This document shows, piece by piece, positions 19,203 to 24,003 of a stretch of 64,000 nt of DNA (within the stretch, counting starts at the first letter, position 1; each line of letters starts with the position of its first letter). Below the pieces are notes generated by a model. It was not told the origin of the DNA. It was given only the letters and a program-made list of their open reading frames with translations, and made no database searches. This stretch comes from a virus. Its lineage: Duplodnaviria > Heunggongvirae > Uroviricota > Caudoviricetes. The DNA is taken from IMG/VR virus record IMGVR_UViG_3300042006_000024; one strand, 5' to 3'. Made by a program: the position numbers and the translations under genes.

Positions 19203-19279
19203 TGGTGGGTCGCCTGAGATTCGAACTCAGGACATCCAGATTAAAAGTCTGGAGCTCTAACCAGCTGAGCTAGCGACCC
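19203..19279 (-). tRNA. tRNA-Lys(TTT)
   Basis: GGGTCGC/GCGACCC, CCAGA-CTTTTAA-TCTGG, ACCA. Confidence 0.95.
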
Positions 19280-19289
19280 GTGAAAGATG

Positions 19290-19403
19290 TATTGGTTGAT
19301 GTAGCGTATGTCAATAAGGGCAACCACGACCTAGTTGAACTGACTCGCTAGCTTCTCCTAGGTTGATAGAGTGCTGTTCGAGCTGACGCTACATCCACCA
19401 ATA
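19290..19403 (-). ncRNA. structured ncRNA closed by an 18-bp near-perfect stem
   Basis: TATTGGTGGATGTAGCGT/ACGCTACATCAACCAATA; internal ACCTAG/CTAGGT stem. Confidence 0.6.
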
Positions 19404-19434
19404 GATCCTTTCGAATATATTGGTACAAATTGAT

Positions 19435-19611
19435 CAGTGTAGAGGTGCGCTATTACGCCAAAGGAGAAGTTAGCCTTACCGTCTCCGGGGTGCCTTCTTA
19501 CTTACCAATTCGAGATGCTGCTTGGGTTTACATTCCCAGCAAACCGCACGTTCGAATCTTGCTCCACTCTTTAAAGGATGGCTGCTTCTAAGCCCACCTT
19601 CCGCTACACTG
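19435..19611 (-). ncRNA. RNA resembling the 23S rRNA uL11-binding domain (H43/H44) with ~105-nt insertion
   Basis: GGAAGGTGGGCTTAGAAGCAGCCATCCTTTAAAGAG ... GCGTAATAGCGCACC closed by CAGTGTAG/CTACACTG. Confidence 0.8.
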
Positions 19612-19619
19612 GGTGAAAC

Positions 19620-19695
19620 TGGTCAGAGTGACAGGCGTCGAACCTGCGACCTCTTGGTCCCAAACCAAGCGCTCTACCAACTGAGCTACACTCTG
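19620..19695 (-). tRNA. tRNA-Pro(TGG)
   Basis: CAGAGTG/CACTCTG, CTTGG-TTTGGGA-CCAAG, ACCA. Confidence 0.95.
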
Positions 19696-19877: not shown

Positions 19878-19905
19878 ATTCTACTAGAGTCTAAGCACAT
19901 GTCAA
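19878..19905 (-). promoter_or_regulatory. sigma70-type promoter inside tRNA array
   Basis: TTGACA-16-TAGAAT. Confidence 0.6.
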
Positions 19906-20755: not shown

Positions 20756-20949
20756 TCTTCGGTTTCCTGTTCAGTAGTGCCCTTGGATTGACCTTCATCG
20801 AAAGCCAAATCTTCCTGGGCGTAGTTGGTATGCTCACCTACACGTTTCAGTCCCGTTTCATATTGCTCGCTCCTATCAAGTGGCTGTGGTTCGTAATCAA
20901 CGTTTGCGAATCGACTGCGCATGTCACGTCTACTCCGATCGAATTTCAC
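20752..20949 (-). CDS. hypothetical protein
   Basis: ORF track; start overlaps upstream stop. Confidence 0.55.
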   Translation of the reverse strand: MKFDRSRRDMRSRFANVDYEPQPLDRSEQYETGLKRVGEHTNYAQEDLAFDEGQSKGTTEQETEE

Positions 20950-21404
20950 TTGGCAAAGTGTTGTTTGACAGCGTCAGAAGCAACCTTACCGTCGTACTGA
21001 CCAGCACAGTTAGCCTTCAGCCACTTCATGGCATCGGCCATGTTAGTGATGCTGTTTTGTGTGATGCGCTGGATGATCTGGGAAGCGCTCAACTGTGTCG
21101 GTGTGTACTTTTCCAGCAGTTGATTGATGAAATTGTTTTCATCCATCAGCTTACCACTAACCCGCGAGCATGCCACCTTCAGGCACTCGGCGTTCGAGCC
21201 GTGCATCTTGCGCAGGATCGAAAGGACTGCGAGGTCATCAACCTCTTTACCTACACGTTCACACTCACCGACTACCAGAGTCAAGAGGTTGAACTCAGTC
21301 ACCACGTTAGGCGCTTTGCGGTAAAGATTGCGCATTTCTTTCAGGGTGTCGATCAGCTTCATTACAGTGTTCCTTGTAGTGAGGGTGACGCTTGCCACCC
21401 TCAT
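20946..21404 (-). CDS. YqeY/GatB-domain protein
   Basis: Helical pattern ...LLEKYTPTQLS...MADAMKWLKANCAGQYDGKVAS typical of YqeY. Confidence 0.75.
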   Translation of the reverse strand: MRVASVTLTTRNTVMKLIDTLKEMRNLYRKAPNVVTEFNLLTLVVGECERVGKEVDDLAVLSILRKMHGSNAECLKVACSRVSGKLMDENNFINQLLEKYTPTQLSASQIIQRITQNSITNMADAMKWLKANCAGQYDGKVASDAVKQHFAK

Positions 21405-21680: not shown

Positions 21681-22148
21681 TTACTTATCAGCTTTATTGC
21701 TGTTACAAGTGATGCACATCGTTTGCGTGTTGCTGAGGTTGTTTGCACCGCCTTTAGAGCGTGCATGCACATGATCACATGTAAACAACTCTTCACGACC
21801 ATCCACAAGACCGTATAAGTTCAAGTGATACTTGTCAGTGCCACCATTTACCTGTCTCTCAACTGCGAAGAACGACGCGTAAGCTCCACATCCATGACAG
21901 CGCGTGCCAGTCTTAGCGAAGGTGCGCAAACGCAAGCTGTATAACTTTAGCTCTTGACCCATGATAGTTATCGTTGGGCGATGAGGCGGTAAGCCTATCA
22001 TACCAACAACATCTTCAAGAGGTACAGTGGTCAAACGCTCATAGTTTGATGGATTTCGCATATGTAGTTCCAACTTCAGATGTTTAGTGCAAGTACTGTA
22101 CACTCCTTTGTCTGAAGTGTACAGCATTGTTTTCAACTTACCAAACAA
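21681..22148 (-). CDS. HNH endonuclease
   Basis: CHGCG...CDHVHARSKGGANNLSNTQTMCITCNSNK. Confidence 0.85.
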   Translation of the reverse strand: MFGKLKTMLYTSDKGVYSTCTKHLKLELHMRNPSNYERLTTVPLEDVVGMIGLPPHRPTITIMGQELKLYSLRLRTFAKTGTRCHGCGAYASFFAVERQVNGGTDKYHLNLYGLVDGREELFTCDHVHARSKGGANNLSNTQTMCITCNSNKADK

Positions 22149-22872: not shown

Positions 22873-23340
22873 TCAGACAGATTGTGCATCTTCAATATCC
22901 ATCAGTACTTCAGCGAGGCGGCGAACATCGTCCCATTTGTGGAGTTCTATCAGTTGATACAAGGCGTCTTTGACGATCTTGATCGACGGATTACCTTCAT
23001 ATGGCGCATTGGCCACGATGCACGTTACAGGCGGCTCCAATTCACCGTGTTCATCAATGAAGTCGACGACCGCGTTGTTTGGCAGTGGCAGTGGAACATG
23101 CACCAAGAACGGAAACATCGCAGTGTCAACTGTTACTTCAGCGCCTTTGAATACGCCGTTGGCATCTTCTGTTGAAGCACGCAAGAAGTCAGCGAGCGAT
23201 TTGGTTTCTTTCAGACCAGTGCCCAGGTAGTCACGAGCCGTCTTAATCCACGGCACCATCAGCATACCGTAGGTGCGACCGCTGTTCAATTCAGGGTTGA
23301 GCGGGCCGTAAAAGTGACCAATTTTTAAACGAAACTTCAT
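22873..23340 (-). CDS. hypothetical protein with ribosomal bL12 C-terminal-like motif
   Basis: VPWIKTARDYLGTGLKETKSLAD vs bL12 [23 protein letters not shown]. Confidence 0.6.
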   Translation of the reverse strand: MKFRLKIGHFYGPLNPELNSGRTYGMLMVPWIKTARDYLGTGLKETKSLADFLRASTEDANGVFKGAEVTVDTAMFPFLVHVPLPLPNNAVVDFIDEHGELEPPVTCIVANAPYEGNPSIKIVKDALYQLIELHKWDDVRRLAEVLMDIEDAQSV

Positions 23341-23711
23341 GCGATAGGTTCCCAGTTGAGGAGAGTCATCAGGTCGTTTTCGCACTGATCAAAGAACCCG
23401 ATAGGCCAGTGAGTAGCGCATCCATCCTGAGTGAATGTTACCATTGTAGTTTGAACTTTGCCGTCAACGATGTGGTCGTAATGAACAACCAGGTCAGCAA
23501 CATCAATCAAGTTTTTGCTGATCGCGACACGCAGGCCGTTGAACAGGTTGTCGTTGTTGCTGAAGACATGGCGTTCACCTTCATCAGGAATACGCAGTTC
23601 GCGGCCGATGGTCGACATCTCAAGACCAGTGGCATACAGTGAACCCAACACTTCAGGTTTTATCTTGAGGACGCCACAGTAAATGCCACAGTGAAAATAG
23701 AGCTTACCCAT
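23337..23711 (-). CDS. DUF3696-like hypothetical protein
   Basis: SNNDNLFNGLRVAI...DG...WPIGFFDQ. Confidence 0.6.
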   Translation of the reverse strand: MGKLYFHCGIYCGVLKIKPEVLGSLYATGLEMSTIGRELRIPDEGERHVFSNNDNLFNGLRVAISKNLIDVADLVVHYDHIVDGKVQTTMVTFTQDGCATHWPIGFFDQCENDLMTLLNWEPIA

Positions 23712-23721
23712 GATGAACCCC

Positions 23722-24003
23722 TTAACAAAAGTCAATGACGTTATTAGCAACGTCAACACAGATGAACAGCTCACCTTCTTCAAGCTCTTCATTCGATGGC
23801 AGATAGACGTACAACATACCGTCGTCGTTACCACAATCATGCGCGCTCTCATCCTGCCACTCAAGAACAGTGGTCTTGATCAATTCAGTCAAAATGACTT
23901 CGCTTAGCGTGCCGCTGTAGGCGTAGCTGCAACCGCTTGGTGCGAGAAGTTTGCCCAATTTGACGTTCAGCGATTGTTCAATGTATTTGAGAGTAGGATT
24001 CAT
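23722..24003 (-). CDS. hypothetical protein
   Basis: ORF track; GAGGA RBS; early promoter upstream. Confidence 0.6.
   Translation of the reverse strand: MNPTLKYIEQSLNVKLGKLLAPSGCSYAYSGTLSEVILTELIKTTVLEWQDESAHDCGNDDGMLYVYLPSNEELEEGELFICVDVANNVIDFC

Follow-up and report, generated by a model that had tools for sequence, protein, structure and literature searches.

A phage tRNA-array RNA that appears to mimic the GTPase-associated centre of 23S ribosomal RNA

Among the tRNA genes of a large phage lies a short stretch that reads like one domain of 23S rRNA. What is this element, and what could it do for the phage? The window (the whole stretch of DNA analysed here, 64,000 nucleotides or 64 kb) belongs to a T4-like phage, with genes for UvsX, a DnaB-type helicase, DsbA, an HNH endonuclease and YqeY. 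Its nearest cultured relative is the Pseudomonas putida phage pf16, with ~71% nucleotide identity across a syntenic 6-kb replication block, and the source DNA of the phage has been seen in rhizosphere and soil metagenomes. The element is surrounded by 10 tRNA genes, all on its own strand (ARAGORN, Rfam), and the minus-strand sequence reported for it in the preliminary description, between tRNA-Pro and tRNA-Lys, is as quoted on re-reading. The features of the locus are collected in Table 1. The comparisons presented here lead us to read the 177-nt RNA as a phage mimic of the GTPase-associated centre of 23S rRNA, one of a family of mimic RNAs that is absent from Rfam 15 and from the searchable literature.

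Three observations concern the surroundings of the element. The gene order is tRNA-Asn, element, tRNA-Pro, tRNA-Lys in pf16 (L003:1380-1860) and tRNA-Pro, element, tRNA-Lys in the window (19435-19695). The spacer of 155 nt that leads from the element to tRNA-Lys (19280-19434) is not a tRNA, and its best Rfam E values, 6-9, are not meaningful. A 170-aa minus-strand protein (22873-23385), a candidate for a bL12-like protein, matched nothing in Pfam at E ≤0.01; around it lie DUF3696 (23337-23864), the HNH endonuclease (21681-22148) and YqeY (20946-21404).

Table 1 Features of the mimic RNA and of its immediate surroundings (window coordinates; E. coli 23S numbering for rRNA equivalents).
Feature	Coordinates	Strand	Description and basis
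Whole ncRNA	19435..19611	-	177 nt; sequence reading and full-length covariance-model match
P1, 5' strand	19601..19611	-	closing helix in place of H42; pairs with 19435-19445
H43 equivalent (1057-1081)	19575..19599	-	A1067 loop (A at 19589), U1060 (19596); BLAST and Rfam LSU
1082-1090 segment	19566..19574	-	U1082-A1086 pair (19574/19570), G1087, bulged A1088 (19568), G1089, U1090
Insert between 1090 and 1091	19459..19565	-	107 nt, three-way junction
Insert-opening helix GGAG/CUCC	19562..19565 with 19463-19466	-	4 bp; covariation
Variable hairpin	19508..19557	-	AUUCGA/UCGAAU base, with UGCU/AGCA and GGG/CCC further in; read from palindromic arms
Conserved arm	19467..19499	-	2-bp base, AGA/GAA-type loop, GGC/GCU helix, CACC/UAAGG loop, CCG/CGG helix, GAGA tetraloop; RNAalifold
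UUUG linker returning into H44	19459..19462	-	absent from rRNA
H44 hairpin equivalent (1091-1103)	19446..19458	-	GUAAUA loop, A1095 (19454); matches E. coli 1091-1100
P1, 3' strand	19435..19445	-	pairs with 19601-19611
tRNA-Pro(UGG)	19620..19695	-	9 nt upstream of the element; ARAGORN and Rfam
tRNA-Lys(UUU)	19203..19279	-	next downstream tRNA, 155 nt past the element; ARAGORN and Rfam
Sigma-70-like promoter match (candidate)	19878..19905	-	TTGACA-16-TAGAAT, 11/12; upstream of tRNA-Pro; consensus scan

The GTPase-associated centre of bacterial 23S rRNA comprises helices H42-H44 (E. coli 1051-1108) and is the 58-nt domain that binds uL11 and thiostrepton. With the numbering anchored on A1067 and A1095 of E. 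coli 23S, the element covers positions 1054-1090, is then interrupted by the insert, and resumes with 1091-1105. By BLAST, its 5' block shares 34 of 38 nt (89.5%) with the 23S rRNA of E. coli, a match found in all 5426 genomes of that species. The E. coli text that the preliminary description had quoted for 1057-1104 agrees with the real 23S gene, compared over 1057-1108, and its statement that the phage copy keeps both loops, U1060, A1088 and the U1082-A1086 segment holds at every one of these positions (Table 1). The window differs from E. coli within H43 at the pair 1058-1080, which is G-C rather than U-A. The Rfam LSU rRNA model aligns 19550-19601 at H43/H44 with 21.8 bits (E 1.3e-4), below its gathering score of 50, and only model positions 1182-1231 are aligned. 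A genuine LSU rRNA gene or fragment (RF02541/RF02540) is thus not what lies here: the match is sub-threshold and does not continue into the neighbouring helices. Rfam reports no other rRNA match in the 64-kb window, as the preliminary description had supposed. Among the E. coli genes used for comparison, one 23S copy (L056:2195-2205, strain SCU-301) reads GCGGGAU where GCCAGGAU is expected at 1051-1057 and is annotated 18 nt short of the usual 2904 nt, probably an assembly error or strain variation.

The same element was found by BLAST in the Pseudomonas phages pf16, UNO-G1W1, Milchi and Astolliot, in each of which it adjoins tRNA genes. A pattern derived from the insert retrieved more copies from IMG/VR, from four metagenome-assembled genome contigs and from metagenomes, and a pattern covering the H43 loop alone matched at least 118 IMG/VR contigs; among the H43-loop matches listed there is no real rRNA, and in nearly all of them the 1087-1090 segment is followed by an insert. 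The design is shared by about ten cultured large phages, including, beyond Pseudomonas, Aeromonas phage 4_4572, Xanthomonas phages XacN1 and XaC1, Cronobacter phage GAP32, Pectobacterium phage CBB and Paenibacillus phage Pd_22F. R1, a covariance model of 18 copies from other phages, with the window excluded, matches the 64-kb window once, at 19436-19611 on the minus strand (143.3 bits, E 7.6e-39, model positions 1-199 of 199). As R1 was built without the window and finds only this site, the element is far beyond chance. No Rfam 15 family explains the element, and the literature searched contains no description of such an RNA. A paper on virus-encoded ribosomal proteins covers phage bL12 and the rRNA region bound by uL10 and uL11, and mentions no RNA mimic (PMC6375957).

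Several members depart from the common form. Milchi (L001:1160-1480) and Astolliot (L004, same place) carry a second, more divergent H43-like block (GGGCUUAAAGGUAGCC...GCGAGUGG) ~340 nt upstream of the main element. This second block resembles an IMG/VR subfamily (L068, L092, L111), so some phages may hold tandem paralogous mimics. One IMG/VR contig (L101:5137-5800) has two H43-like blocks on the same strand, 318 nt apart. One member (L066:3700-3790) is minimal and insert-free: a GC-GUAACA-GC hairpin comes straight after H43, and a closing helix completes it. The element of L020 (11152-11384, minus strand) has an extra insertion of ~35 nt in the 3' strand of H43 besides the usual H44 insert. 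The 3' half alone, arm and H44 hairpin, is found in a contig binned as a Propionibacterium MAG (L030:5000-5120), where unrelated GC-rich sequence adjoins it; either the copy has been truncated or the assembly is chimeric.

For comparative analysis, 86 unique family members were parsed by a fixed geometry. The closing stem, first described as the element's own perfect 8-bp helix, indeed has eight perfect pairs, followed by a C.U mismatch and two G-C pairs. Across the family the P1 pairs include all four Watson-Crick types, and the observed pairing of 87% was reached by none of 500 shuffles; the same result (0/500) was obtained for H43, for 1082-1086, for the insert-opening helix and for the base of the arm. 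Within the centre itself, the pair 1057-1081 is AU in 68 and CG in 13 of the 86 copies, the pair 1058-1080 is GC in 37, UA in 29, AU in 14 and CG in 4, and the pair 1082-1086 is UA in 46, CG in 28 and AU in 3. These three pairs covary in the manner of genuine rRNA, and the H43 helix and the 1082-1086 interaction of the centre fold are thus both maintained by compensatory change. The preliminary description had viewed the element as a stand-alone domain, not a captured piece of rRNA, and had pointed to covariation among relatives as the means of judging the closing stem and the insert. The relatives bear this out, since the element is conserved in a family with compensatory changes in the stem, in H43, in 1082-1086 and in the insert.

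Pattern-based retrieval inflates the apparent conservation at 1062-1077, at 1091-1100 and in the arm core. Positions outside the retrieval patterns are nearly invariant as well. G1059 and U1060 are kept in 86/86 copies, G1087 in 84/86 and A1088 in 85/86. U1083, A1084 and A1085 are kept in 85/86 each, as are C1102 and A1103, all independently of the patterns, and the pair G1059-C1079 is kept in 85/86. The assignment of uL11 contacts is taken from PMC2175356. The near-invariance of U1060, A1088 and the core positions argues that the uL11-contact determinants have been kept, and the window itself retains the nucleotides of the tertiary core and of the uL11 contact (U1060-A1088, G1059-C1079, A1077 and 1083-1085). 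The loops that carry A1067 and A1095, which face the translation factors and thiostrepton, are present in the window and in all relatives; this 100% conservation is not independent, because it is partly fixed by the retrieval patterns, and A1067 is also kept in three members retrieved without the H43 pattern. In the H44 hairpin, the pair 1092-1099 is CG in 83 and UA in 3 copies. U1090 pairs with A or G at 1101 in 82/86 copies; position 1101 is A in 83/86 and U in E. coli, and the window has U-G at this pair, which in E. coli is A1090-U1101. Nothing in the element corresponds to H42 and its kink-turn 42 and uL10 region, and a regular helix of freely varying sequence stands instead.

Structure prediction from the alignment agrees with this parse. 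RNAalifold, applied to the 18-sequence alignment, independently recovers P1, H43, the insert arm and the H44 hairpin; double compensatory changes are seen at 14 of the 26 pairs that it predicts. Minimum-energy folding of the single sequence does not recover H43/H44 and does no better than shuffles (z -1.59), as expected for a fold that is held together by tertiary contacts. Comparison shows selection on the predicted RNA to preserve the loops of the GTPase-associated centre, its helices and the nucleotides of its tertiary core. Judged on these grounds, the element very probably folds like that centre.

The preliminary description had H44 split by a structured insertion, and 107 nt do lie between 1090 and 1091. 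The point of insertion is identical in all 86 parsed members, and the length ranges from 61 to 350 nt. The opening helix is paired in 84, 83, 76 and 68 of 86 copies at its four positions, with 48 distinct sequence combinations, and is 100% paired in the window's subfamily. On the far side, the UUUG linker is U in 82, U in 84, U in 82 and G in 77 of the 86 copies (90-98% per position). The window thus carries the complete signature of the family: the insert at 1090/1091, the 4-bp opening helix, UUUG, the pairing of U1090 with A or G at 1101, and P1. The helices first proposed for the insert stand in part. ATTCGA/TCGAAT and TGCT/AGCA belong to the variable hairpin, but AGAAG/CTTCT is rejected, as its register finds no support in the family and would disrupt the well-supported opening helix; covariation favours GGAG/CUCC, followed by AA/UU at the base of the arm. 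The variable hairpin differs in length and sequence among relatives, and the junction strand GGUAAGU is conserved. The hairpin of the window is like that of Milchi and unlike that of pf16, though the genome is nearest to pf16, which suggests local shuffling of modules.

The conserved arm is a recurrent class of insert: when H43 alone served for retrieval, 12 of 60 unique members had it. The AGA/GAA-type loop is present in most relatives, the following helix has the form GGC/GCY, and the CACC/UAAGG internal loop is invariant, within an arm core whose conservation is raised by the mode of retrieval. The base pairs of the arm are AU, GC, CG or UA. Among the 36 arm-bearing copies the pair at the centre of the GGC helix is GC in 28, UA in 5, AU in 2 and CG in 1, and the loop-closing pair is GC in 19, GU in 7, AU in 3, UA in 2 and CC in 5; in a near relative from one public run the loop-closing G-C has become A-U (19486/19481). 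The terminal loops are GAAA, GAGA, UAAC or UAAA, all of GNRA-like shape. The arm matches no Rfam family, and its strands, inspected by eye, fit none of the sarcin-ricin bulged-G, UAA/GAN and kink-turn motifs. Its AGA/GAA loop looks as if it could form tandem sheared G.A pairs. Short-word BLAST of the insert against E. coli 23S, 16S and 5S rRNA gave chance 7-9-mers only. The capped arm probably either braces the fold or adds a second contact, and its GNRA-like loop would dock on the RNA itself or on a partner. A motif resembling the sarcin-ricin loop is absent from the window insert and occurs in only 2 of the 86 family inserts: those of L092 and L125 (313 and 350 nt) contain AGUA-C-GGGA-G-GAA and AGUACGAAAGGAGC.

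How does this RNA relate to what is known? With the 23S centre it shares H43 and the H44 hairpin, nearly letter for letter, the covarying pairs 1057-1081, 1058-1080 and 1082-1086, and the nucleotides U1060, A1067, A1088, A1095, 1083-1085 and 1102-1103. It differs in being free-standing, outside any rRNA gene; in having a plain helix of variable sequence in place of the H42 kink-turn and uL10 site; in the splitting of H44 at 1090/1091 by the 4-bp helix, the inserted domain and the UUUG linker; and in having U1090 with A or G at 1101 instead of A1090-U1101. The mRNA leaders of ribosomal proteins (the L10 leader; the L1, S8, S15 and L20 operators) are likewise extra-ribosomal RNAs that copy an rRNA binding site. 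However, the leaders are cis-regulatory, reside in cellular mRNAs and reproduce the minimal protein contact only, whereas the phage RNA lies in a tRNA array with no ribosomal-protein gene near and reproduces the whole tertiary domain, including the factor-facing loops. A ribosomal-protein leader such as L10_leader was rejected as an identity for the element, which is flanked by tRNAs, has no uL11 domain in its relatives and matches no Rfam leader.

Other RNAs of phage tRNA regions (GOLLD, ROOL, tRNA-like decoys and the stable RNAs of T4) also lie among same-strand tRNA genes, with likely release by tRNA processing. The element matches none of the Rfam models for GOLLD and ROOL, and its core, unlike theirs, is an rRNA domain. 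T4 encodes unexplained stable RNAs together with its tRNA genes. A tmRNA was not matched either, and a group I intron within an rRNA exon is rejected: there is no Intron_gpI match at E ≤10, the insert is 107 nt, and the would-be exons of 46 and 24 nt close on themselves. 6S RNA, which mimics an open promoter, and bacterial Y RNA, with its tRNA-like module, are non-coding RNAs that imitate a nucleic-acid ligand of a central machine; the phage RNA differs in imitating a ribosomal RNA domain. Its nearest known counterparts are the 23S domain that it copies and the operators of ribosomal-protein mRNAs that mimic rRNA. From both, the RNA would differ as a putatively trans-acting, phage-encoded copy of a complete tertiary domain.

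The genomic setting suggests how such an RNA would be made. A tRNA lies within 3 kb in 62/86 copies and a same-strand tRNA within 100 nt in 43/86, and all 74 neighbouring tRNAs within 300 nt are co-oriented with the element. In 29 copies a tRNA starts ≤30 nt downstream, and in 20 copies one ends ≤30 nt upstream. The window's element, too, lies among same-strand tRNA genes of a large phage. No terminator-like site is present between the promoter match (19905-19878) and tRNA-Pro, and the number of sigma-70-like sites in the region is not above that of shuffles. The element would most likely be co-transcribed with the tRNA array as a stable non-coding RNA, and RNase P and the enzymes that process tRNA 3' ends would then free it, with the 10-bp P1 protecting the ends of the RNA. 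Searches of sequencing runs for the phage returned DNA metagenomes only (rhizosphere, soil). When four runs were aligned with the stretch, contigs from the RNA libraries among them covered only 19565-19599 and are real rRNA, not the element, as they run on into ordinary 23S rRNA. In a wastewater metatranscriptome, one 511-nt contig holds the arm and the 3' core of a relative, a weak hint at most because such libraries can contain DNA.

What would the RNA do once released? Given the comparative support for the core, its two ends would form a compact tertiary fold, with H43 and H44 joined through interlocking loops. Such a centre-like fold implies the display, off the ribosome, of the surface that is bound by uL11 and touched by the translation GTPases. 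For docking, host uL11 would use the U1060-A1088 pair and the minor groove of H43, and the element retains both. The uL11 domain (PF00298) is absent from the nearest record and from the complete genomes of four relatives (pf16, Astolliot, Milchi and UNO-G1W1), whereas every control genome gives a match, so the uL11 partner would be that of the host. The insert leaves H44 on the 5' strand, away from the uL11-binding H43 stem, and the existence of at least one member without any insert argues that the centre itself, and not the insert, is the functional core. On this evidence we think it probable that the element binds uL11.

The RNA, or an RNA-uL11 particle, would then serve as a free-standing decoy of the base of the ribosomal stalk. 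The reading that we prefer, at a probability of roughly 0.55, is that the element would act as an off-ribosome decoy of the uL11/factor site. The decoy could work in any of three ways: by titration of uL11, with no activation of RelA on ribosomes that lack it; by diversion of a translational GTPase; or by absorbing an enzyme or toxin aimed at the centre. Against a decoy stands stoichiometry, as it would have to compete with tens of thousands of ribosomes. Against mimicry of the centre stand the H44 insert and the UUUG linker, absent from rRNA, which could alter the surface. The sarcin-ricin-like motif of the two large members would fit a family that imitates the whole factor-binding site, although the window copy is without it. 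A bolder proposal, to which we give slightly less than even odds, is that the tRNA-array RNA of large phages would be a free-standing miniature factor-binding site, made up of the GTPase-associated centre and joined in some members by a sarcin-ricin-like loop, that, loaded with host uL11, traps or mis-activates GTPases or the RelA pathway, or absorbs defence toxins. If true, this would define a new class of host-takeover or counter-defence RNA that works through mimicry of an rRNA domain.

The main rival to this explanation holds that the RNA is a substrate-mimic decoy for a toxin or defence effector that modifies or cuts H43/H44, with uL11 binding incidental. By analogy, it would resemble the phage tRNAs that replace or shield the tRNAs hit by anticodon nucleases, and the tRNA array is where phages store spare parts of the translation machinery. 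A real bacterial toxin is aimed at exactly the H44 domain: Tre23 ADP-ribosylates H44 at ~1095-1098 and blocks the GTPase activity of EF-G (PMC8661411). The two large members with a sarcin-ricin-like motif, another classic toxin target, point the same way. Yet no known anti-phage system targets the GTPase-associated centre, catalytic toxins are poorly neutralised stoichiometrically, and the insert of the window has no such motif. The strict conservation of the uL11 contacts is better explained by protein binding, and we regard this rival as unlikely, if the strongest.

Less probable still is a handle-and-cargo arrangement, in which the variable insert would be the working part and the copy of the centre only a scaffold for folding, or a handle by which an abundant host protein is brought in to stabilise or localise the RNA. 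The inserts, with their span of 61-350 nt and their distinct conserved classes (the arm class in 12/60, besides other recurrent motifs), are what one would expect of cargo; but the core works alone in at least one insert-free member (L066), and the factor-facing loops are as conserved as the uL11 site, more than a handle alone would require. A dead piece of rRNA, captured from the host by recombination and carried passively, would account for the 34 of 38 nt shared with E. coli 23S. This is very improbable: there is no flanking rRNA, the element recurs with covarying pairs in over 100 unrelated phage contigs, the family has marks of its own that E. coli rRNA lacks (U1090-A1101, the UUUG linker, the closing helix and G1058-C1080), and the family-wide compensatory changes contradict passive carriage. 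Weakest of all, a small protein gene on the opposite strand, as suggested by the hypothetical CDSs of 35-43 codons annotated in Milchi (L001:1529-1660) and UNO-G1W1 (L002:1575-1682), is almost certainly not the explanation, as the window element has stop codons in all six reading frames, pf16 and Astolliot have no such CDS, and the relatives differ by indels and paired compensatory changes; the two annotated CDSs are probably mis-annotations.

The mimicry of the GTPase-associated centre is thus the reading that we carry forward. In Rfam 15 and the literature searched, no trans-acting RNA is found that copies a whole functional domain of rRNA, and the mimic RNA described here is widespread in large phages of many hosts and under clear structural selection. 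Few RNA-protein-drug systems have been studied as well as that of the rRNA domain, uL11 and thiostrepton, which offers a ready experimental handle, and cultured carriers exist (pf16 on P. putida, UNO-G1W1 on P. fluorescens), so the question is directly testable. If the RNA binds uL11 or the factors of this site, it would reveal a new viral route to the manipulation of translation, of the stringent response or of ribosome-directed immunity, and it would also account for some of the unexplained RNA that phage tRNA clusters contain.
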